Part shown: positions 1,966-32,323 of the stretch, piece after piece
How positions within the stretch are numbered: the stretch's first letter is position 1
How the letters are laid out: each line of letters begins with the position of its first letter
Source: Escherichia phage vB_Eco_Lzu_P3
Strand: one strand, 5' to 3'
Length of the DNA stretch: 44,829 nt
Sequence record: PQ295796
Notes under the pieces: model-generated
Databases searched by the model: none
What the model was told of the DNA's origin: nothing
The model's input: only the letters and a program-made list of their open reading frames with translations
Position numbers and translations under genes: made by a program

Positions 1966-2558
1966 TATTTCACCTTCGAATTAATCTCTGCCGCTACGAC
2001 GCGAACAATCCCCGCGGGCGCTTGTTTACTCCAGCCATACTCAAGTCGCTGCGCGTATGGCACGTTGTTAGTAAACCAGATCGACCCGTATTCACTCGAA
2101 TCGTAATGCGCCAGCACTTCACGTCCCGCGGCTAATGTTGCCGTTCCGGCCTTGTCAACGCGGTCAATAGCACCGACAGCCGGGCGATCAAATGTCACCT
2201 GCCAGTTACCACGGAAGCGCCCGCCGGTGTAATTCTTCGCGGCCCAGCCACGCTGGCGGAATGTCACATTGCCGTTTTTAGTCTTGAATGATACCAGCAC
2301 ACTGGCGTGCTTCTTCTGCCCGCGCTTCAGTTTGCCGCCATTCTTGCGACGCTGTGCGGCGTTCACCTTGTTCGCGTGCTGGCGAGCCATTGCATAAGCC
2401 TTGTTAATCTTCCACCGGCGAGGGTCGCCCACCGGGGAGATCTCAATAAGGCGTCCGAGTATTTGCATCCCGTACGCCCGCACCGCCTTATCGTTGTTCT
2501 CCTTCGTCTTATCCACCCATGTAGCAATAGTGGCGGCGAATGAGTAGACTTCAGCCAC
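1965..2558 (-). CDS. Putative neck / head-tail joining protein
   Basis: 197-aa ORF with GTG start at 2558 and AAGGGG RBS. Function assigned by position between connector and tail genes only. Confidence 0.4.
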   Translation of the reverse strand: MAEVYSFAATIATWVDKTKENNDKAVRAYGMQILGRLIEISPVGDPRRWKINKAYAMARQHANKVNAAQRRKNGGKLKRGQKKHASVLVSFKTKNGNVTFRQRGWAAKNYTGGRFRGNWQVTFDRPAVGAIDRVDKAGTATLAAGREVLAHYDSSEYGSIWFTNNVPYAQRLEYGWSKQAPAGIVRVVAAEINSKVK

Positions 2559-2559
2559 G

Positions 2560-2913
2560 TTAGCCCCTTAGCTGTAGTTGAAACAGCATGGTCTGGCCCG
2601 CCGGTTGCAGGGGGTTGGGATTGACAACCCGGTAGTCTGTATTGTTCAGGCTAACCAAATCCCCGACCTTTACCTGCTTAACGGCCTGACACAAAAACTT
2701 CACATCACCGGCAACGATACGCGTCCCGTCGATCTCGCTCGGCTTGTACTCCTCTCGAAGACCGATGACGTCGAACGACGTTGGCGGGATTATCACTTCG
2801 TCGCCGTCTACGCGGTCAACCGACCCCGGACGCGTCACCGTAGCCGTCATGCCGAACTTTTTAATCAGCGGATTGACTTTCCGCTTTAACCCCGCGTAAT
2901 TAAAGCCCGCCAT
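2560..2913 (-). CDS. Putative head-tail adaptor protein
   Basis: ORF 2560..2919; start moved to the second ATG (2913), which has AGGAGG 6 nt upstream. Confidence 0.4.
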   Translation of the reverse strand: MAGFNYAGLKRKVNPLIKKFGMTATVTRPGSVDRVDGDEVIIPPTSFDVIGLREEYKPSEIDGTRIVAGDVKFLCQAVKQVKVGDLVSLNNTDYRVVNPNPLQPAGQTMLFQLQLRG

Positions 2914-3016
2914 TATCATCCTCCTGTACCGGTGGTTCCGGTTCTGGCGCTGGTTCCGGTTCTGGTTGGCGTTTAGTATTTGCGGCGATAATAGCCGCCA
3001 GAAATGCAGGATTCAT
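2900..3016 (-). CDS. Small hypothetical protein (38 aa, PEPEPAPEPEP repeat)
   Basis: Internal ATG of ORF 2900..3247 with a GGGGG RBS-like run 5 nt upstream. Fills the gap between two head-tail genes. Very short, so low confidence. Confidence 0.25.
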   Translation of the reverse strand: MNPAFLAAIIAANTKRQPEPEPAPEPEPPVQEDDNGGL

Positions 3017-4774: not shown

Positions 4775-5479
4775 TTACTCGTCGTCGCCCATTTTAGCGA
4801 TGATTTCACCCGCCTGTTTCGTCAAGTCAGTGATACCGAAGCTATGACCCATAGTGATTTTAGACTTCACATCTTCGACGACCTGCGTCGGTTTGCTCGG
4901 CGCACCACCGGCTGGCGTGCCTGCCAGGACAGATGCAAAATCGGCGTTACTACGGAACTCTTTTTCAAGTTCGTCCATAGTCAGCGCGGACGGTTTGCCG
5001 TCCTTCAATACCCGCACCTTCAAGCTGCCGTCTTCGCCGTCTTCCAGCGTTAGGCGGTCCATAACGTGGCGTTGCATGATACCCGCATTCTTACCGAACA
5101 GCTTCGATGCCAGGTCTTTGGCAGCGCTGCCGATGGTCAGGTCGTGGATCTGCTTGCGATAGGCTTCGATTTTCCCCGATGTGTCCGCTTCATGTTTTGC
5201 GAACTTATCTTTCCAGGACTTATCGATCGCTTCGAGGTCGCCATTTTTGCGCGCGGCGGCTTCCTCTTTCTCTTTCGCAAGGCGCTCCGCTTCGGCGCGA
5301 CGTTCGGCTTCTGCTTTCTTCTCGCTAACCAGCTTCGCGTTGTTGTCTTTCAGACCCTTGATTTCCGCCTGTACTTCTTCGGCGGTCATGAACGTGGATT
5401 TATACCCATCGCCATCGGCAACAAATAAAGCCTTCATGCCTTCTGGCAACGCGTCATATTCTGCTTTAGTAAGTTTCAT
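4775..5479 (-). CDS. Putative scaffolding protein
   Basis: Lys/Glu/Ala-rich, coiled-coil-like sequence (…KKAEAERRAEAERLAKEKEEAAARK…) immediately upstream of the capsid gene. Start moved to ATG at 5479 with AGGGGGA RBS. Confidence 0.5.
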   Translation of the reverse strand: MKLTKAEYDALPEGMKALFVADGDGYKSTFMTAEEVQAEIKGLKDNNAKLVSEKKAEAERRAEAERLAKEKEEAAARKNGDLEAIDKSWKDKFAKHEADTSGKIEAYRKQIHDLTIGSAAKDLASKLFGKNAGIMQRHVMDRLTLEDGEDGSLKVRVLKDGKPSALTMDELEKEFRSNADFASVLAGTPAGGAPSKPTQVVEDVKSKITMGHSFGITDLTKQAGEIIAKMGDDE

Positions 5480-5568
5480 GCTATCCCCCTGGGATTGTGG
5501 CAAAGCGGGCCACCCGCTTGACTTCACGCCTTAATATTATCAGCGATAAAAATAATCGCAAAATTCGC

Positions 5569-5615
5569 TTGCATTGCGGATGTTGGTTGCATTATATTGG
5601 TTGCACACCAACAGA
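5569..5615 (+). promoter_or_regulatory. Promoter TTGCAT-N18-TATATT, with two TTGGTTGCA elements flanking and overlapping the -10
   Basis: gcTTGCATtgcggatgTTGGTTGCAtTATATTGGTTGCACACCAACA. The -10 plus downstream element is almost identical to the 16.5-kb promoter. Confidence 0.5.
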
Positions 5616-5633
5616 GATATGAAGGAAGACAAA

Positions 5634-5948
5634 ATGACTAACATGACCGTAGCAACTCCAGTAGACGCCGCAATGGCCCGTTTCAATAAAGCTACCGTAG
5701 CGAATACCTTTACCTTTCACGCAATGCGTAACGCGGAAGCGCTGAATCTGTGCCAGAGCATGAATGCATCTGAAGCGGCAAAAGCGGCGATCAACTCCGC
5801 GACATTCGATAATCCGGCTTGCGGCCTGGTTCCGGCATCTTTCATAAACGCCCTGGTCGAAGCCTTTAACGATTTCATGTGCGTCGATGCCGTTGAAGCT
5901 GTATGTGCTCGCTTAACCTCAACCGGCGGCAACATCAAATTTAACTAA
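5634..5948 (+). CDS. Hypothetical protein (first gene of reverse-oriented cassette)
   Basis: Plus-strand ORF inside a minus-strand structural block. Start taken at ATG 5634 with GAAGGAAG RBS. A sigma70-like promoter with TTGGTTGCA elements lies upstream. Confidence 0.5.
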   Translation: MTNMTVATPVDAAMARFNKATVANTFTFHAMRNAEALNLCQSMNASEAAKAAINSATFDNPACGLVPASFINALVEAFNDFMCVDAVEAVCARLTSTGGNIKFN

Positions 5949-5987
5949 ACCAATCGGGGCGAAAGCCCCTAAAATGAGGACATAAAA

Positions 5988-6752
5988 ATGAGACTGACGA
6001 AAGACATTAAAAATCAGATCCTGGCTAACATCCTGCGCGACCACGAAATCGCGGCAGAAGCCAAACAAATCATGATGGACTCTCGCGACCTGGCGTACGC
6101 AATCACGCTGGACTGTATGCCGGAAGGCATTCGCACGTTCGCAGCGCTCCGCGAGCATATCAAGGCAATCCACGATGACCAGTCGCAGATGTACGGCGTC
6201 AGCGTATACACCAACAAGGCGACGTATAGTTATAACACCGACCGCCCGAAGGGTATCGGCAGCGTTTACGACGCCACCTTTGAAATCAACGCAGGCGGCA
6301 ATGTTCGCACCTTGTCCTTGAGCGGTGACGGTCGCCAATTCCGCGTGCATCGCGGATACTGGGAAGAGAAATATATGAATAAGCTCGCGCCTGATCTCGG
6401 CGATATCGTTCCGGGGTTCGAGACAGTTATGCTCGCGTCAGTGTGCGAAGTGGACGAGGAAGGAAAAGCGCTGCCGATATATCTCCCACGCGGTCGCGTA
6501 GACTACCCGGCGGACCATGACTTCTGTAAGCGCCTGGACCGCAACGACAAGGCACGTCGCGAGTTGCGTGCGAAGTATGACGCGTTCAAACTCACCGTTA
6601 CCGGTGTACTGGACCTGCACAATACTGACAAGAAGCTGATTAAGGCATGGCCTGAAGTTGAGCAATTCATACCATACCCGGACAAGCCAAAATCCACGGC
6701 GGTGGCGCTGGACGTGAAAACACTCAACGAGATTTGCGGCATTCCGCGCTAA
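5988..6752 (+). CDS. Hypothetical protein (254 aa, second gene of reverse-oriented cassette)
   Basis: ORF with AGGA RBS, followed by a bidirectional terminator at 6753..6786. No motif I could recognise. Confidence 0.6.
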   Translation: MRLTKDIKNQILANILRDHEIAAEAKQIMMDSRDLAYAITLDCMPEGIRTFAALREHIKAIHDDQSQMYGVSVYTNKATYSYNTDRPKGIGSVYDATFEINAGGNVRTLSLSGDGRQFRVHRGYWEEKYMNKLAPDLGDIVPGFETVMLASVCEVDEEGKALPIYLPRGRVDYPADHDFCKRLDRNDKARRELRAKYDAFKLTVTGVLDLHNTDKKLIKAWPEVEQFIPYPDKPKSTAVALDVKTLNEICGIPR

Positions 6753-6786
6753 CAAAAAGGGGCCATTACGGCCCCTTAATTATTTG
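6753..6786. terminator. Bidirectional intrinsic terminator
   Basis: AGGGGCC-attac-GGCCCCT with A/T tracts on both sides. Lies between the convergent cassette and the spanin genes. Confidence 0.6.
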
Positions 6787-6996
6787 CTGCAACTCCAGCA
6801 CCTGCGCCCTTAGCTTCGCCCCGCATTCCATATTTTTAACATCAATCATCAAATCTTCGTCGGGGTCCGCGGACGGGTTATCGAACTTGCACGGCGGTCG
6901 CAGTGCCGACTCCGTTAGCGGCATCAACGGCACGCTGCTTGATCCGCACGCGCTCAGCGTCAAAATTACAATCAGGGCGGTTAGGGCGCGTAACAT
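6766..6996 (-). CDS. Outer-membrane spanin (Rz1-like lipoprotein)
   Basis: Out-of-frame ORF overlapping the 3' part of the i-spanin gene. N-terminal MLRALTALIVILTLSACG has a lipobox (LSAC), followed by a Pro-rich region. Start at ATG 6996 with AGAGG RBS. Confidence 0.5.
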   Translation of the reverse strand: MLRALTALIVILTLSACGSSSVPLMPLTESALRPPCKFDNPSADPDEDLMIDVKNMECGAKLRAQVLELQQIIKGP

Positions 6997-16465: not shown

Positions 16466-16513
16466 TGTTGGTGTGCAACCAATCTAGCAGGGTGCCAGGC
16501 GGAATGCAACCAA
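16466..16513 (-). promoter_or_regulatory. Promoter TTGCAT-N17-TAGATT (minus strand) with an ATTGGTTGCAcACCAACA operator-like element overlapping -10 and +1
   Basis: Minus-strand read: attaatATTGGTTGCATtccgcctggcaccctgcTAGATTGGTTGCACACCAACAtgaggactgaacaATG. Confidence 0.5.
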
Positions 16514-25995: not shown

Positions 25996-26187
25996 ATGAA
26001 AGCAGATATGAGCATTATGCGCGCTGGCGCGGCGGACAATGATGAAATTAGCATCGTCATTAGACTGGAACGTGGCAAGACCATTACGGCACTTGTCACA
26101 CCTGAAAACCTGGCGCTGGCACTAACTGGTCGATCGGAGATACCGGTAGACCTCCGTCTGCGTAACGTGGAGTTGCAAACAAAATGA
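25996..26187 (+). CDS. Hypothetical protein (63 aa)
   Basis: AGGAAA RBS. Its stop overlaps the VRR-NUC start. Confidence 0.35.
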   Translation: MKADMSIMRAGAADNDEISIVIRLERGKTITALVTPENLALALTGRSEIPVDLRLRNVELQTK

Positions 26188-26462
26188 CCCCCGAAGGCAA
26201 GATCCAAAGTCACCTTATGAAGCTGGTGAAAGCTGTCGGCGGATTCTGCCGTAAAGTGGCATGGGAGGGGCGCGCGGGTGCGCCCGATCTGATTATCATC
26301 ATCAACGGCAGAATAGTTTTCGTCGAAGTGAAGCGCCCCGGTGGTAAACCGAAGCCGCACCAGGTACGAGAACATGAGCGAATGGCCCGCCGCGGTGCGG
26401 ACGTTCGCGTCATCGACAACATAGCCGACTGTGATTTATTGGTTGCTGAATTGGTCGCGTAG
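26184..26462 (+). CDS. VRR-NUC domain nuclease
   Basis: 92 aa with PD-(D/E)xK-type motifs (GAPDLIIIINGRIVFVEVKRPGGK…Q) typical of VRR-NUC. Confidence 0.65.
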   Translation: MTPEGKIQSHLMKLVKAVGGFCRKVAWEGRAGAPDLIIIINGRIVFVEVKRPGGKPKPHQVREHERMARRGADVRVIDNIADCDLLVAELVA

Positions 26463-26502
26463 CGGTATAGTGGGCCGGTTAGCACTATCGAGGATTTTAG
26501 AA

Positions 26503-26676
26503 ATGATTGAAGAAAAACGCTGCAGTAATTGCGGCTGCGTTAAACCGATATCCCAGTTCCATAAATACACCGGTAAGACTGCGCGAAGTCCGGACGGGTA
26601 TCGGGCAGAGTGCAAATCGTGCCGCAATAAAAAAGAGCGCGAACGGCAGCGCCGCTACCGCGCAGAGCAAAAATAA
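26503..26676 (+). CDS. Zinc-ribbon protein (CxxC…CxxC)
   Basis: Start at ATG 26503 with GAGGA RBS. CSNCGC…CKSCRNKKERERQRR. Followed by a terminator. Confidence 0.4.
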   Translation: MIEEKRCSNCGCVKPISQFHKYTGKTARSPDGYRAECKSCRNKKERERQRRYRAEQK

Positions 26677-26683
26677 TTAATAA

Positions 26684-26706
26684 GGCGGGCTTGTCCCGCC
26701 AATTTT
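26684..26706 (+). terminator. Intrinsic terminator after the zinc-ribbon gene
   Basis: GGCGGG-cttgt-CCCGCC stem followed by AATTTT. Confidence 0.45.
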
Positions 26707-26719
26707 GGGAGACATGACG

Positions 26720-26938
26720 ATGAAAGAACATTATCGACTCACCAAGCTGGGCGAATGTAAACCAGGCGATCGCGTATGGTTTATTGCTGGCATTAATTCC
26801 CCGCTGCCGTTGACGGTGTGCTGGCAGAAGTTTAAGCGCTTCCGGGCCACCGGTGTCCACATCGGACACGCCACCAACTACGACGCCACAAAAAGGAACT
26901 GGAACAGTGAAACCGAAGTCTGGAAAAAGGCGGAATAA
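26720..26938 (+). CDS. Hypothetical protein (72 aa)
   Basis: GGGAGA RBS 7 nt upstream of ATG 26720. Confidence 0.4.
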   Translation: MKEHYRLTKLGECKPGDRVWFIAGINSPLPLTVCWQKFKRFRATGVHIGHATNYDATKRNWNSETEVWKKAE

Positions 26939-26942
26939 AGAA

Positions 26943-28367
26943 ATGGCACGTTTCCGACGTCGCGAATATCAGAAGTTGATAACCGCGTTCATCCTCAAGC
27001 ATAAGCGATGCAATATATGGGCGACAATGGGGTCGGGTAAAACCGGCGCGACCATGTGGGCACTGAATAAAATGTTCCAGACTGGCATCCTGTCCAACCA
27101 GGAGGACCGCGTACTGGTGCTGGCCCCGCTGCGCGTTGCGTCCGGTACATGGCCCCCGGAGCAGGAGAAATGGCGATTCCCCGCCTTGCTGGTCGTAGAC
27201 GGCACCGGGTCTGAAAAAGACCGTATCGCCGCGCTTGAGAGCGGCGCTAACGTAGTTTGTGTTAACTATGATGTAGTTGAGTGGCTGGTTGACTATTACG
27301 GAGATGCGTGGCCATTTACGGTCGTTGTTGCCGATGAATCCACTAAGCTGAAAGGCTATAGAAGCAAGCAGGGGAGTAAGCGCGCCCGCGCACTGGCGGC
27401 GATTGCCCATAAGCACGTCAAGCGATGGATTAACCTTACCGGCACACCCGCGCCAAACGGACTGAAAGACCTGTGGGGTCAGACGTGGTTTGTCGACGGA
27501 GGCGAACGCCTCGGCAGTAGTTATAAGGCATTTACGGATCGCTGGTTTATTAGCAAGCCTGTTAAGCCGGGCAGCTTCACTATGCAGCACGCCCCGCTTA
27601 AGAACTCCGAGAAAGAAATACAACAACGCCTGTCCGACGTGTCGCTCACCGTTGATGCGGCTGAATACTTCGGATGTGACAAGCCAATCTATACGCCGGT
27701 TGTAGTGGACCTGCCGAAGAAAGCCCGCAAGATTTATGACCAGTTCGAAGCGGAGCTATTTGCCGAACTGGAAAGCGGAACGGTGGAGGCGGCGAACGCT
27801 GCTTCGAAGACCATTAAGTGCCTTCAGCTTGCTTCCGGGGCCGTGTATAAGGTCGACGAAGACGGCGAACGGACCGACGAATGGGTGAAAATTCACGACG
27901 CTAAACTGGACGCGCTGGAAAGTATCGTGGAGGAGTTGAACGGAGCACCGTTGCTCGTCGCGTACCAGTACAAGCATGATCTGGCGCGTCTCAAGAAGAA
28001 ATTCCCGCACGGCGTTGCGTTGGGCAAGGGCAAGCAGGGCAATAAGGATATGGAAGCGTGGAACAGGGGCGAGATCCCCATCATGTTTGCGCACCCGGCA
28101 TCGGCGGGCCACGGCCTCAACCTGCAGGACGGCGGACACCACCTTGCTATCTTCTCAGACACCTGGAACTTTGAGCACTTTTCGCAGATCGTGGAGCGTA
28201 TCGGGCCGGTTCGCCAGATGCAAGCCGGGCACCCCCGTCCAGTATTCGTCTATATTATCCAGGCGCGCGGGACATTGGACGAACTGGTCGCCGAGCGTCG
28301 CGACAGTAAGCGAGATATACAGGACGACTTGATGGAATACATGAAAGCTAAAAAGGCGCGCAAATGA
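26943..28367 (+). CDS. Superfamily-2 helicase (DEAD/DEAH-box or SNF2-like)
   Basis: Walker A GSGKTGAT and motif II VVADESTKL are present, with a C-terminal helicase domain. Start at ATG 26943. Confidence 0.75.
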   Translation: MARFRRREYQKLITAFILKHKRCNIWATMGSGKTGATMWALNKMFQTGILSNQEDRVLVLAPLRVASGTWPPEQEKWRFPALLVVDGTGSEKDRIAALESGANVVCVNYDVVEWLVDYYGDAWPFTVVVADESTKLKGYRSKQGSKRARALAAIAHKHVKRWINLTGTPAPNGLKDLWGQTWFVDGGERLGSSYKAFTDRWFISKPVKPGSFTMQHAPLKNSEKEIQQRLSDVSLTVDAAEYFGCDKPIYTPVVVDLPKKARKIYDQFEAELFAELESGTVEAANAASKTIKCLQLASGAVYKVDEDGERTDEWVKIHDAKLDALESIVEELNGAPLLVAYQYKHDLARLKKKFPHGVALGKGKQGNKDMEAWNRGEIPIMFAHPASAGHGLNLQDGGHHLAIFSDTWNFEHFSQIVERIGPVRQMQAGHPRPVFVYIIQARGTLDELVAERRDSKRDIQDDLMEYMKAKKARK

Positions 28368-29074
28368 CTATTGCTAAAATGACAATCTGGTCATTGTTTG
28401 ACGGCAGCGGCTTGATGATTGAGCGTGCTGCCGAGATGGGGCATAAGTGTTATTGCTTCAACTACTCCGAAGCCGACCACGGGTCTTATCTGGACTACCG
28501 GATCTATGGTCGCGGTATCCGATATCGCAATGAGTTTATTGACCTGGACTTCGTGGACCGCGCTATGAATGGCGACTTCGGCACGCCGGATATCATCTAT
28601 GCATTCCCGCCGTGTACTGATCTGGCGGTGAGCGGCGCGCCAGCTTTCCCGCGCAAACGCGCCCGCGACCCTGCCTTCCAGCTTAAGGCGGTGCGCACCG
28701 CGAAGATCGCCGCTTACCTGGGCGATTTCTTCGAAGTGCCATATATGATTGAGAATCCGCGCAGCGTGCTCTCCACTCAATGGCGTAAGCCGGACCACTC
28801 GTTTGACCCGTGGGAGTATGGCGGCTATTTGCCAGAGGATGACGTACACCCGTTATTCCCTGAATACATCAACGCCCGCGATTCATATCCGAAGCTGACC
28901 TGCTTATGGACCGGCAACGGCTTCCGTATGCCAGAGAAGAAACCTGTTTTCGTTGAAAAAGGGTACTCGAAACAGTATAGTCGCCTCGGTGGTAAATCCG
29001 CTCGTACAAAATTAATCCGCTCACTCACCCCGCGCGGCTTCGCGATAGCGGTTAACGAGGAAAATTTAAAATGA
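28364..29074 (+). CDS. DNA cytosine-5 methyltransferase-like protein (short, atypical)
   Basis: Motif I LFDGSG, motif IV-like FPPCTD (PCT rather than PCQ) and motif VI-like IENP (rather than ENV), with spacing like C5-methyltransferases. Only 236 aa, with no obvious target-recognition domain. Confidence 0.5.
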   Translation: MTIAKMTIWSLFDGSGLMIERAAEMGHKCYCFNYSEADHGSYLDYRIYGRGIRYRNEFIDLDFVDRAMNGDFGTPDIIYAFPPCTDLAVSGAPAFPRKRARDPAFQLKAVRTAKIAAYLGDFFEVPYMIENPRSVLSTQWRKPDHSFDPWEYGGYLPEDDVHPLFPEYINARDSYPKLTCLWTGNGFRMPEKKPVFVEKGYSKQYSRLGGKSARTKLIRSLTPRGFAIAVNEENLK

Positions 29075-29394
29075 ATACTACATTCGACGCCATCGACTTT
29101 TCAGTGGCAATGACCAATCAGCTTTTTTCCTACGACAGCAAGACCGGCGTCATTCGCCTGAAGTCCACAGGCTGCAAGATTGGCAACCTTAACACTGCCG
29201 ATGGCGGAACACGTATCGAATACAACGGTAAGACGCTGTCTGGCGCACGCGTGGCGTGGATTATTGAGACGGGCAATACAATCCCCCCAGGCTTCGCCGT
29301 TGTGTGCCGCCAGCGCACGCCAGGGCACTACGGCAACCGGATCAGCAATCTGTATCTGGTAGACGTAGCGCGCGACCCAAACTTTTATGCGTAA
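29071..29394 (+). CDS. HNH_3/AP2-like domain protein (possibly degenerate)
   Basis: YNGKTLSGARVAWIIETGNTIPPGFAVVCRQRTPGHYGNRISNLYLV follows the HNH_3 pattern, but the position usually occupied by the conserved His reads CRQRT. Confidence 0.3.
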   Translation: MNTTFDAIDFSVAMTNQLFSYDSKTGVIRLKSTGCKIGNLNTADGGTRIEYNGKTLSGARVAWIIETGNTIPPGFAVVCRQRTPGHYGNRISNLYLVDVARDPNFYA

Positions 29395-29395
29395 A

Positions 29396-29428
29396 TTGGT
29401 TGCATAATCATATTGGTTGCATTATATT
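29396..29428 (+). promoter_or_regulatory. Promoter TTGCAT-N17-TATATT, with tandem TTGGTTGCA elements (29396..29404 and 29413..29421)
   Basis: Read directly, upstream of the gene at 29476. Confidence 0.5.
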
Positions 29429-29475
29429 GAGGGTGTCCGGTTTGGACGCCCTTTTTAATACCTGGAGACAACACG

Positions 29476-29940
29476 ATGAAAATTTTACAAGAAGAGAAAA
29501 ATTACTGGGCCGCGCAATGCCTCGAAGCCCGCGAGCAAACGGCCAACGCGAAACAATCGGCCGAAATCTTCCGGTCAGGTTATGAAACGGAAGAAAAGCG
29601 TCGCATGGAGTTAGAGGAGCGCTTCGAACTGCTATTCGAATTGATGGGGATTATGCAGCGCACCGGATACACCACCAGCGTTGCACTAAACCGCATCACT
29701 GCCGATAGTTTGCGTGAGCACTGTAAACGTGCGGAGGAGTACGTGCGTCCGAAGGGTCGCCAGTCTTCGATCGCCAGGAAAGATTTGGTGCTTATGGCGT
29801 GGCGCAACCCGACAAACGGCAGCTTCTACCCGGACGCGCGCCCGCTTAGTGCTGAGGAGACAAAGCGCGTGCAACGCATTCTCAAAACCGGCAATAAAAT
29901 CGCCCTGTATGCGATAGATACCGACCATGCAGAAGAGTGA
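29476..29940 (+). CDS. Hypothetical protein (154 aa)
   Basis: GGAGA RBS. A promoter with tandem TTGGTTGCA elements and a 5'-UTR hairpin lie upstream. Confidence 0.5.
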   Translation: MKILQEEKNYWAAQCLEAREQTANAKQSAEIFRSGYETEEKRRMELEERFELLFELMGIMQRTGYTTSVALNRITADSLREHCKRAEEYVRPKGRQSSIARKDLVLMAWRNPTNGSFYPDARPLSAEETKRVQRILKTGNKIALYAIDTDHAEE

Positions 29941-30412
29941 GCAAAAAGATAGCTGGCGCACGCCGCCAGCTTTATTTAAACCGCTGCGCCGGAAGTACCG
30001 ATTCCGTTATGACATGGCGGCGAGCGACGCCAACCACCTGCTACCGCGTTACTTCACGGCGGAGCACAGCGCGCTCGATGTGGACTGGTCAGAGTTGAAA
30101 GGGTGGAAGTGGTGCAACCCGCCGTATTCCGATCCGCTTCCGTGGGTTAAGTGCGCAGCGCACGGACGCCGGACAGTCATGCTACTGAATCAGGACACGT
30201 CGACAAAGTGGGCGCGGTTGGCCCGGAAGACTGCAAACCTGATAATTCTTCTGGACTGGCGGATACGATTCATACATGCTGTGACCGGTGAAGTCGGGCC
30301 GAGCAATAACAAGTGCCAGCAATTAATAATCTTTGACGAAGCGCCGCCCACCGGCAGCGCACAAATTGAAATAATGAGCGAAGGAGAACTCCTTGAATAT
30401 CTTAATCGTTGA
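29927..30412 (+). CDS. dam: DNA N6-adenine methyltransferase (phage Dam family)
   Basis: SWRTPPALF…YDMAASDANH…WCNPPYSD. The NPPY catalytic motif and a size of about 160 aa are typical of small phage Dam methyltransferases. Confidence 0.65.
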   Translation: MQKSEQKDSWRTPPALFKPLRRKYRFRYDMAASDANHLLPRYFTAEHSALDVDWSELKGWKWCNPPYSDPLPWVKCAAHGRRTVMLLNQDTSTKWARLARKTANLIILLDWRIRFIHAVTGEVGPSNNKCQQLIIFDEAPPTGSAQIEIMSEGELLEYLNR

Positions 30413-30617
30413 CCGCGACCCCGCGGTCGTAGACCAAATGCAAAGAGACTACTGTATTGATCCGCGACGCAATCGGGTAGTGCGCGCGTCTCGCCCCGAA
30501 TACATCCTGGGCCTTGACCTCACCGGTTGGCTTGTCATTACTCAGCGTTGCCATTTCGTGTGCAACTCCTTTACTGCGCGAAGCGCCCGTTACACCCTTA
30601 TTGAGAGTTTAAAATGA
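30393..30617 (+). CDS. Hypothetical protein (74 aa, TTG start)
   Basis: AAGGAG RBS 7 nt upstream of TTG 30393. Confidence 0.3.
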   Translation: MNILIVDRDPAVVDQMQRDYCIDPRRNRVVRASRPEYILGLDLTGWLVITQRCHFVCNSFTARSARYTLIESLK

Positions 30618-31084
30618 AATTACTGATTTGCGATTTGGATGGCGTTATTAACGGTTCAAGCGATGCGCGTGCCGACTTGGTGCCTGGCATAAAAACTAAA
30701 TCCACCTTTTGGGCGAAGTGGCACAAGGCGCACGTCCGCGAAGACCTTAACATGGATATGCTGCCGCTACTGCGCATGTATAAAGAGCAAGGCTTCGAGA
30801 TCGCGTATCTGACCAACCGGCAGCGAGAATGTTGGGACACCACCGCCGAGCAATTGGAGGTCTTCCCAGTAGGCCGGTTGTTTATGCGCCACATGCTGGA
30901 CGACACCCCGCCGCCTGAGTTTAAAGCGTGCGCCGTGTTCAAAATGGTATGTTACGCGGACGTGTCTGAACTGGTCATCATTGAAGATTGCGAGAAGAAC
31001 ATCGCGGCAATTCGTCGGGCGTGTAGTGATTTGGTCCCGAAAATTTACGCAATAAACGTTGCAAAATTCACTTGCAACCAATAG
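30614..31084 (+). CDS. HAD-superfamily hydrolase (putative nucleotidase/phosphatase)
   Basis: N-terminal motif I LLICDLDGVI (DxDG). GAGAG RBS. ATGA overlap with the upstream gene. Confidence 0.5.
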   Translation: MKLLICDLDGVINGSSDARADLVPGIKTKSTFWAKWHKAHVREDLNMDMLPLLRMYKEQGFEIAYLTNRQRECWDTTAEQLEVFPVGRLFMRHMLDDTPPPEFKACAVFKMVCYADVSELVIIEDCEKNIAAIRRACSDLVPKIYAINVAKFTCNQ

Positions 31085-31101
31085 GTTGGTTGCACTATAG
31101 T
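31072..31101 (+). promoter_or_regulatory. Promoter TTGCAA-N18-TATAGT, containing the inverted repeat TGCAACCAA-N4-TTGGTTGCA (31073..31094)
   Basis: A perfect 9-bp inverted repeat separated by 4 bp, embedded in the promoter. Confidence 0.5.
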
Positions 31102-31150
31102 AAACGTGTCGGGGGCAATACAGCCCCCCTCGCTTAAAAGGGGTAATACT

Positions 31151-31705
31151 GTGAAAGCATACGAATACTGCAAAAACGCCGCCACCACTATGGAACAGCG
31201 CGGGAAAGAAAACGGCTATGACAACGCGAAAGAAGAACGCAGCGCTAAACAAATCGCTGCCGTGTTTAACGCGCTTACCGGGCGCGACCTTACCGAGCAA
31301 GAAGCCTGGACCTTCCTGATCTGCCTGAAGCTGGTGCGCCAGCACCGTAAGCACCAGGAAGATAACATCGTGGACCTGGTGGCGTATGCCGCCCTGCTGG
31401 GCGAGTCTTACATGACCGTGCATGACGAGATTCAGATCGATACAACGGCCGCACAATTCGACAGCCTCAAAGGCCTGTCCGTGCGCCTGGACGGCGAGAT
31501 TAATGCGTATAACAGCGCAATTCGCGTTGCAGAGGACACGGTAGCCTCGTTCGGCAAGACGGTTAAGGCCCGCGATTTTGGAGTTGTAGCCCAGGACGTC
31601 CAGCCTATGGTCGTGCTCACCGGCGAAGACGGATCGAAAATCTGCATGACGCAGGAAGACTTCCGTAACATGGAAAAAACACTGGTGACGGGCGCACTTA
31701 AATAA
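31151..31705 (+). CDS. Hypothetical protein
   Basis: ORF 31106..31705; I prefer GTG 31151, which has an AAAAGGGG RBS, because the upstream part overlaps a G5/C6 hairpin. Confidence 0.4.
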   Translation: MKAYEYCKNAATTMEQRGKENGYDNAKEERSAKQIAAVFNALTGRDLTEQEAWTFLICLKLVRQHRKHQEDNIVDLVAYAALLGESYMTVHDEIQIDTTAAQFDSLKGLSVRLDGEINAYNSAIRVAEDTVASFGKTVKARDFGVVAQDVQPMVVLTGEDGSKICMTQEDFRNMEKTLVTGALK

Positions 31706-31747
31706 TTCTAATCGCGGGCTTCGGCCCGCATCAATGAGGGATTCACA

Positions 31748-32323
31748 ATGTACGGCGAATATGAAATAACCGGTAAACAATTCCACCTGGCGGCAATGAT
31801 TGCAAGCATCGAGTTTGAACAGTGGCGATACAAGTCTGACGCGTGCAAGCAAAGCAGACTCGTCGGTGTGCTGGGCGAAATGTTTGCAGGCATGTACCTC
31901 GAAGGGCAGGCGGGCGGGCGTAGCTGTATCCCGCAAGGTTTGCTAATGCGTACCGGCCTGTTTAGCGCTAACACTATCGACCGCGGCGATATTATCATGG
32001 TTGGCAAGCGCAAGGTAAAATCCGGTCCCGACTTCCGCGAACATATGATTGATGCCGTCTGGACCTACGAGGTTAAGGCTACCAGCGGCATCCGTCGTGG
32101 GCTGGTTGAGGCACGTTGCGCTCGCGAGTATCTCATTCGTCGAGTTGCCGGTGTTATTCTGGTGGGGGTGTCGTTCGGGCAGCATAGCGCCAGCGGCGTG
32201 ATTGAGGATATTGCGGAGCCATACGTGATAGTTAACGATTGGCCCCTGGTGGAAGTGGACGGTAAGGAATATTACGAAAGCCCGCTTGTGCGGCGCAAAA
32301 TGGACTGGGAAAACTCAAACTAA
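31748..32323 (+). CDS. Hypothetical protein (191 aa)
   Basis: GAGGGA RBS. It is the last gene of the plus-strand block before the bidirectional terminator. Confidence 0.5.
   Translation: MYGEYEITGKQFHLAAMIASIEFEQWRYKSDACKQSRLVGVLGEMFAGMYLEGQAGGRSCIPQGLLMRTGLFSANTIDRGDIIMVGKRKVKSGPDFREHMIDAVWTYEVKATSGIRRGLVEARCAREYLIRRVAGVILVGVSFGQHSASGVIEDIAEPYVIVNDWPLVEVDGKEYYESPLVRRKMDWENSN

Follow-up and report, generated by a model that had tools for sequence, protein, structure and literature searches.

A question raised by the early replication region of Escherichia phage vB_Eco_Lzu_P3 (sequence record PQ295796; the window analyzed here is the whole stretch of 44,829 nucleotides (nt)) is whether a 236-amino acid (aa) protein that carries the motifs of C5-cytosine methyltransferases in an unusually short chain is an ordinary enzyme that works by itself, or one that has altered its chemistry or depends on a partner encoded beside it. 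The latter two possibilities were put forward in a preliminary description of the locus made from the letters of the sequence, which viewed the gene for this protein (28364-29074), an HNH-like gene that follows it (29071-29394) and a gene for a Dam-type N6-adenine methyltransferase (29927-30412), all on the + strand, as an anti-restriction DNA-modification module. Our analysis leads us to a simpler answer, which we regard with good confidence as the correct one: the early replication region likely encodes two orphan methyltransferases, the 236-aa protein being an active, self-sufficient, compact Dcm-like enzyme and the 161-aa protein a Dam enzyme. The compact phage Dcm-like family is already known and widely annotated, and the window contains a standard orphan methylase pair. 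Below, we provide the evidence for this view, as well as the alternatives to it.

The methylase, HNH-like and Dam open reading frames (ORFs) are real genes rather than chance ORFs, as is evident from their low ratios of nonsynonymous to synonymous substitution rates (dN/dS). With phages Ioannina and Envy as references, the methylase gene has a dN/dS of 0.015-0.045, the HNH-like gene one of 0.06-0.09 and the Dam gene one of 0.06; purifying selection acts on each of the three. The start codon of the methylase gene shares bases with the stop codon of the preceding helicase gene in an ATGA at 28364-28367, while its stop codon shares bases with the start of the 107-aa HNH-like ORF in a second ATGA at 29071-29074. 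The coordinates, overlaps and motifs previously given for the three ORFs were all confirmed.

In the 236-aa protein, C5-methyltransferase motifs I, IV and VI stand in order, as had been described (F12-D-G-S-G16, P82-P-C84-T85 and E130-N-P132 respectively), and are followed by Y175-P-K177, R219-S-L-T-P-R-G225 and a C-terminal helix. The protein matches PHROG 757, labeled 'DNA methyltransferase', over residues 2-234 (E 7.3e-84). A word-indexed protein search placed it in a large family of 2,873 clusters at 90% identity, and a further search gave 2,023 representatives at 50% identity (E up to 0.001). Members of the family are consistently about 205-260 aa long and occur in 1,511 of 50,697 phage records, which include Dhillonvirus, Drexlerviridae (TLS, where the gene is called 'dcm' and the protein is 58% identical to that of the window, and the BASEL phage KarlJaspers), Vequintavirinae and phages of Klebsiella, Vibrio and Shewanella. 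Many GenBank records, that of KarlJaspers among them, already carry the label 'Dcm-like C5 cytosine methyltransferase' on family members.

Conservation within this family bears directly on the residues that had appeared atypical. The phage protein does have PCT and ENP where canonical enzymes have PCQ and ENV; however, these are the normal residues of the family, since PPCT and ENP are invariant in 39 closer relatives, as are YPK and LGGK..TK.IRSL.PRG, and C84, E130 and P132 do not vary among 75 diverse members with only 32-55% identity to the query (N131 is conserved in at least 90%). The FDGSG of motif I is likewise invariant in the 39 close relatives, and more variable in distant members. 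The window protein shows all of the family signatures (PPCT, ENP, YPK(K)T and LGGKS..TK.IRSLTPRG), with Leu178 as its single deviation.

Two irregular family members were encountered in the course of this analysis. In the distant metagenomic member P0269 (348 aa), the methylase core is found in two matched stretches and an HNH_2 domain occupies residues 250-298, which points to a methylase gene containing either a homing-endonuclease insertion or a fused gene call. This was the one insertion seen in Pfam scans of ten unusually long members, which detected no DNA-binding or partner domain. In phage Ioannina, the deposited methylase annotation begins at an internal ATG (2312-3004 of the examined stretch), giving a 219-aa protein with motif I left out. 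Judging by eye, the full-length protein is restored by a GTG that lies in frame 11 codons upstream of W-S-L-F-D-G-S-G, and the deposited start thus appears too late.

Both structure and sequence profiles connect this family to the C5-methyltransferases. The 236-aa protein has a class I methyltransferase fold and its nearest structural neighbors are C5-methyltransferases, the closest solved structures being the catalytic domains of DNMT3A and DNMT3B, yet at only 12-16% identity. These are domains of 270-290 residues that have canonical motifs IX and X, function together with DNMT3L in oligomeric form and have CpG as their target. A search of BFVD (viral structures) returned similarly short phage 'DNA-cytosine methylases'. 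At the level of sequence profiles, the Pfam family PF00145 was matched over motifs I-IV by 23 of the 39 relatives, mostly weakly, with three (P0023, P0026 and P0058) exceeding the gathering score of 22 bits. Alignment of the family profiles by hhalign with M.HhaI, used both as a single sequence (100% identical to PDB 10mh) and as a 23-sequence profile, placed F12-D-G-S-G16 on F18-A-G-L-G22 and P83-C84 on P80-C81, where C81 is the M.HhaI nucleophile. The first family profile (A1) aligned to M.HhaI over motifs I-IV only, and a more diverse profile (A4) aligned even less. The protein search with M.HhaI itself gave only relatives at least 71% identical, a set too uniform for a useful profile. Since the short motifs alone are weak, it is the fold match, together with the PF00145 matches of the relatives, that carries the assignment, and on these grounds the classification of the 236-aa protein as a C5-cytosine methyltransferase-type protein is supported.

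Comparison with the canonical enzymes (PF00145; M.HhaI, M.HaeIII and E. coli Dcm) shows what is shared and what differs. Both have the same fold, with motif I, Pro-Cys and Glu-Asn arranged in the same order. The bacterial C5 enzymes among the matches (324-482 aa) exceed the phage protein in length by about 90-240 residues, and the phage protein falls below the Pfam threshold and has no recognizable QxRxR, large target-recognition domain or separate motif X, all of which the canonical enzymes possess.

Evidence that members of this family are active comes from experiments on two homologs. In phage K42 (Drexlerviridae, ~51.5 kb), mutants that escape the retron Ec86 map to a 711-bp dcm gene (bioRxiv 10.1101/2023.08.16.553469). 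When expressed alone, K42 Dcm sickened cells that carried Ec86 and increased 5-methylcytosine (5mC) in multicopy single-stranded DNA (msDNA), as determined by LC-MS (liquid chromatography coupled to mass spectrometry), while a quadruple active-site mutant caused neither the sickness nor the rise in 5mC (10.1101/2023.08.16.553469). The mutated residues, C82, E128, K175 and K176, were chosen from an AlphaFold model superposed on DNMT3A (10.1101/2023.08.16.553469), and it is from this superposition that the equivalence of E130 to the motif VI Glu derives. Alteration of the CC of a CCTGG site in the msDNA abolished defense (10.1101/2023.08.16.553469). We relate K42 Dcm to the window protein through the ortholog in tonn, a 51-kb Drexlerviridae phage. 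This ortholog shares 53% identity with the window protein and, when read from Met22, is 236 aa long with Cys82, Glu128 and Lys175-Lys176, matching the K42 numbering. K42 Dcm has the same length as the window protein (236 aa, from a 711-bp gene) with a numbering offset of two (C82/E128/K175 versus C84/E130/K177), although K42 belongs to another phage family and has a second Lys where the window protein has Leu178.

The second homolog is gp52 of phage AAS23 (235 aa, 52% identical, E 2e-79), which occurs with a Dam, gp34, in the same phage. AAS23 virion DNA was reported to be both Dam- and Dcm-methylated, from digests in which EcoRII and MboI were among the enzymes used; gp52 had been linked by HHpred to a Shigella C5-methylase, with no conserved domain found by BLASTP (PMC8004638). 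Unlike in the window, the two AAS23 methylase genes are far apart on opposite strands, and the host is Pantoea. Taken together, the two homologs speak for ordinary 5mC as the product of the family and for action without a phage partner, its target probably being CCWGG or close to it; of these points, the specificity is the least secure. There are 156 CCWGG sites in the window (observed/expected 1.0) and 165 GATC sites (observed/expected 0.84), indicating that neither sequence is avoided; this lack of depletion is compatible with CCWGG specificity and not diagnostic of it. Other sites are under-represented in the window, namely GAATTC (3 versus ~8 expected), GGCC (171 versus 241), GGWCC (68 versus 98) and CTAG (10 versus 50).

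If the 236-aa protein follows established C5-methyltransferase chemistry, it would bind S-adenosylmethionine (SAM) through its FDGSG loop and flip out the target cytosine, after which Cys84 would attack C6, Glu130 would protonate N3, the methyl group would pass to C5 and β-elimination would free the enzyme. The 107-aa product of the neighboring gene would not be required by the methylase. The cytosine methylase and Dam would both methylate replicating phage DNA, a modification expected to shield it only from restriction enzymes with overlapping sites, and the cytosine methylase may come at a price in that it can set off retron Ec86/Eco1.

Several observations weigh against this view of the locus. 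The experimental support comes from homologs outside Dhillonvirus (K42 and AAS23), CCWGG specificity was assumed by the authors of the K42 study, and a contribution of the AAS23 host's own Dcm is not excluded. The window protein gave no match to PF00145 even at E 10, and had no Pfam, NCBIfam or PDB sequence match; PADLOC returned none for the methylase either, and when all PDB sequences were searched with the 236-aa protein and two family profiles, no methylase match was better than E 0.5. Profile-profile and pairwise alignments beyond motif IV are not significant. The protein has no Q-x-R-x-R of motif VIII, reads K177-L178 at a position that is K-K in most of the family, and shows a single C-terminal motif plus a helix (RSLTPRGFAIAV) where canonical enzymes have both motifs IX and X. 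With regard to function, BASEL found Dhillonvirus to be comparatively sensitive to the type I-III restriction systems tested, and in the related Drexlerviridae it saw no simple relation between methylase genes and resistance to restriction. Because of these sensitivity findings, any anti-restriction benefit is narrow, and triggering of retron Ec86/Eco1 is, on the evidence from homologs, a better-documented consequence of the cytosine methylase than protection.

The most unusual feature of the family is the region that would read the target. Between motifs VIII and IX, other C5-methyltransferases carry a target-recognition domain of some 80-100 residues or more. Here, only ~35 residues (185-218) separate the last core strand (179-184) from R219-SLTPRG, and an insert of roughly 20 residues precedes the YPK motif. 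The earlier statement that a target-recognition domain seems to be lacking is therefore best restated: the region is unusually small. The reduction is real, while the structural equivalences around it are by inspection. Smith-Waterman alignments of three segments against M.HhaI scored no better than shuffled sequence, and the assignments of motifs VIII, IX and X were accordingly made by eye. We propose Y175-P-K177 as the motif VIII equivalent; the residues after YP are K-K in most members (K175/K176 in K42). To the eye, RSLTPRG resembles motif IX (RKLHPRE in M.HhaI) at least as much as motif X, in an alignment that is not significant, and the invariant Arg224 precedes the C-terminal helix. One could take these features further and suppose that the family is the smallest self-sufficient DNA C5-cytosine methyltransferase known, reading its site via a minimal module (the 155-175 insert plus LGGKS..TK.IRSLTPRG), possibly as a DNMT3-like dimer, with the HNH_3-like protein, disabled as a catalyst, domesticated in Dhillonvirus and Eiauvirus as a DNA-binding accessory that tunes the site of action of the neighboring methylase. 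This proposal is speculative, and we would give it about one chance in ten.

A very small target-recognition region would also be explained if the enzyme had two subunits, with the 107-aa protein supplying recognition or targeting, as in split methylases or the DNMT3A-DNMT3L pair. Such an arrangement would fit the ATGA stop/start overlap, which is conserved across the genus, as well as the purifying selection on the HNH-like gene noted above. It would also fit the genome of Edwardsiella phage eiAU-183, in which gp31 (151 aa, 38-40% identity), the only distant homolog of the 107-aa protein, likewise adjoins a C5-methyltransferase gene and Dam. The order there (4860-6882 of the examined stretch) is helicase, gp31, a 330-aa PF00145 methylase and a PF05869 Dam, and is syntenic with the window. 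However, the eiAU-183 methylase is unrelated to the compact family. We considered it as a long version of that family and rejected this on the basis of a BLASTP E of 0.15 against the window protein.

The distribution of the two genes argues against a required partner. The HNH-like gene is found in 161 phage records, all Dhillonvirus-type except for four Edwardsiella phage (Eiauvirus) records at ~40% identity, and it is missing from about 1,350 of the 1,511 records in which the methylase occurs. In the Drexlerviridae, Vequintavirus and Webervirus relatives TLS, tonn, naam and NJR15, the methylase lies beside other genes, and in tonn and TLS no HNH-like gene lies downstream of the methylase. As described above, K42 Dcm works when expressed alone. 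Finally, the natural isolate Opt212 (vB_EcoD_Opt212; 2507-2707 of the examined stretch) has a clean in-frame loss of methylase residues 17-186, including Cys84 and Glu130, and retains an intact, almost identical HNH-like gene downstream. The deletion indicates that the methylase gene is dispensable, and the retention of its neighbor despite that deletion indicates that the HNH-like protein is not an obligate methylase partner. The Opt212 deletion resembles the K42 dcm-loss mutants that escape retron Ec86. The need for a partner raised by the preliminary description is thus contradicted by these data, and we consider a two-subunit enzyme very improbable.

If it is not a methylase subunit, the 107-aa protein is best read as a domesticated, lineage-specific remnant of a homing endonuclease. 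It matches PHROG 99 ('HNH endonuclease') over residues 9-99 (E 2.3e-16). Its match to HNH_3 (PF13392) is sub-threshold at 13.1 bits, versus a cutoff of 24.8, and covers residues 60-77 (profile positions 5-21 of 46), ending directly before the catalytic Asp-His. When the Pfam register is extended by hand, V78-C79 falls at Asp-His and Cys79 takes the catalytic-His position, which agrees with the earlier report that this His is not conserved. This Cys is itself conserved in the Dhillonvirus homologs and in eiAU gp31, although His86 lies seven residues beyond Cys79 and the register could conceivably be shifted. The protein keeps the N-x-x-x-N-L of the HNH_3 core, as found in free-standing homing endonucleases of the HNH_3/NUMOD4 type. 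Homing endonucleases are usually sporadic in their distribution, whereas this gene is a fixed Dhillonvirus core gene. Only five near-identical clusters of the protein were found in a set of 5.8 billion proteins. There was no match to it among PDB sequences or in PADLOC, and an AlphaFold model built from a 5-sequence alignment was unusable (predicted local distance difference test score, pLDDT, of 48.5).

Slightly less probable again than a two-subunit enzyme is an inert or non-DNA role for the methylase, in which the degenerate fold would serve as a DNA-binding decoy or would methylate RNA in the manner of DNMT2. The least probable alternative is the altered chemistry suggested earlier, in which a non-methyl group is transferred to C5, e.g. 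carboxymethyl from host-made carboxy-SAM (Cx-SAM) as in CmoX: it is contradicted by the 5mC detected by LC-MS for K42 Dcm and by the Dcm-type methylation reported from restriction digests of AAS23 virion DNA, no CmoA- or CmoY-ligase-type neighbor occurs among the nine proteins of 26184-32323, and the equivalence of Arg224 to M.HhaI Asn304 of motif X, where CmoX has an Arg that contacts the Cx-SAM carboxylate, is unproven, with no canonical motif X alignable in the window protein.

The second methyltransferase of the locus poses fewer difficulties. The 161-aa protein, encoded one gene downstream of the HNH-like gene as originally described, matches PF05869 (Dam) with E 1.7e-35 and 122.6 bits, versus a cutoff of 28.1, as well as PHROG 111 (E 5e-56) and a PADLOC orphan methyltransferase (E 2e-11). 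It contains WCNPPYS, with N64-P-P-Y67 in common with the phage Dam family (T1, HP1 and VT2-type; PF05869/TIGR01712), and scores 86.9 bits against TIGR01712, below the equivalog cutoff of 97.05. Judged by these profile matches, it is a routine phage Dam, and by analogy its target is probably GATC.

The gene between the HNH-like and Dam genes, orf154 (154 aa; 29476-29940, + strand), overlaps the start of Dam by 14 nt at its 3' end. It matches PHROG 10530 (E 3.4e-88), which is labeled 'DNA ligase', and has no Pfam, NCBIfam or PADLOC match. Some GenBank records use the ligase label as well, and one annotates it with 'Possible DNA ligase but no evidence'. With a dN/dS of about 0.2 it evolves faster than its neighbors. 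The protein is too small for a ligase, and the label looks like a propagated misannotation.

The gap upstream of orf154 contains two elements that bear on how these genes are expressed. The first is a direct pair of the 9-mer TTGGTTGCA (29396-29404 and 29413-29421, + strand), which has 12 exact copies in the window versus 0.46 expected. The sites lie at 5583-5605, 13215, 15942, 16474-16513, 19724, 29396-29421, 31073-31094 and 34192, and most copies form direct or inverted pairs in intergenic gaps. The 9-mer is probably a phage-specific promoter/operator or regulatory element. The second element, recognized by RNA folding, is a GC-rich hairpin followed by a U-run (29429-29458, + strand; hairpin at 29429-29453), whose centroid structure is a 10-bp stem (-17.6 kcal/mol). 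The element has the appearance of an intrinsic terminator or attenuator that separates the HNH-like gene from orf154, although a simple terminator scan did not list the 29429-29453 hairpin. We do not claim a promoter in this gap; the best candidate there, TTGCAT-N17-TATATT, fits only 3/6 of the -35 hexamer. Because the TTGGTTGCA pair and the hairpin lie between them, the methylase/HNH-like pair and the orf154/Dam pair are probably in adjacent transcription units. The idea of a single anti-restriction module is loose for the same reason, while its other part, that methylation would give site-specific anti-restriction, is reasonable. Unrelated phages likewise carry both a cytosine and an adenine methylase in their replication region.

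These observations have their main value in annotation, since Pfam and NCBIfam miss most members of the compact family and many of its genes are labeled 'hypothetical' as a result. A phage with the methylase is also predicted to be partly shielded from restriction enzymes sensitive to the methylated site, and to show sensitivity to retron Ec86/Eco1, which is native to E. coli BL21. The latter is relevant to the choice of phages or production strains, and loss of the methylase is the route by which the K42 mutants escaped the retron.

The source sequence is a Dhillonvirus genome, and a megablast search with 28000-31000 returned 160 phage records, nearly all Escherichia Dhillonvirus, with phage B2 as the top match (96.5% identity across the entire query). 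In the early replication module of the window (26184-32323, nine proteins), every gene is on the + strand. Upstream of the methylase lie genes for a VRR-NUC nuclease (26184-26462) and an SNF2-type DNA helicase (26853-28367; PF00176, E 8.7e-11; PHROG 62, E 3e-157), while a HAD-type phosphatase, a DUF6378 protein and a 191-aa ORF follow downstream of Dam. A small Cys-rich ORF (CSNCGC...CKSC) at 26503-26676, upstream of the helicase gene, is labeled 'Lar-like restriction alleviation protein' or 'kilA anti-repressor' in relatives and has no PADLOC match. If the Lar-like label is right, the region's more direct candidate for anti-restriction would be this ORF.

Three of the records found are attributed to phages of other hosts, namely MG065648.1 (Campylobacter phage A144), OQ221563.1 (Acinetobacter phage NJ01) and OQ291023.1 (Salmonella phage Kenya-K19), and are 91-98% identical to E. 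coli Dhillonvirus here; in addition, ~35 'Campylobacter' records contain the methylase gene. The Campylobacter, Acinetobacter and Salmonella attributions are likely the result of host mislabeling or contamination.

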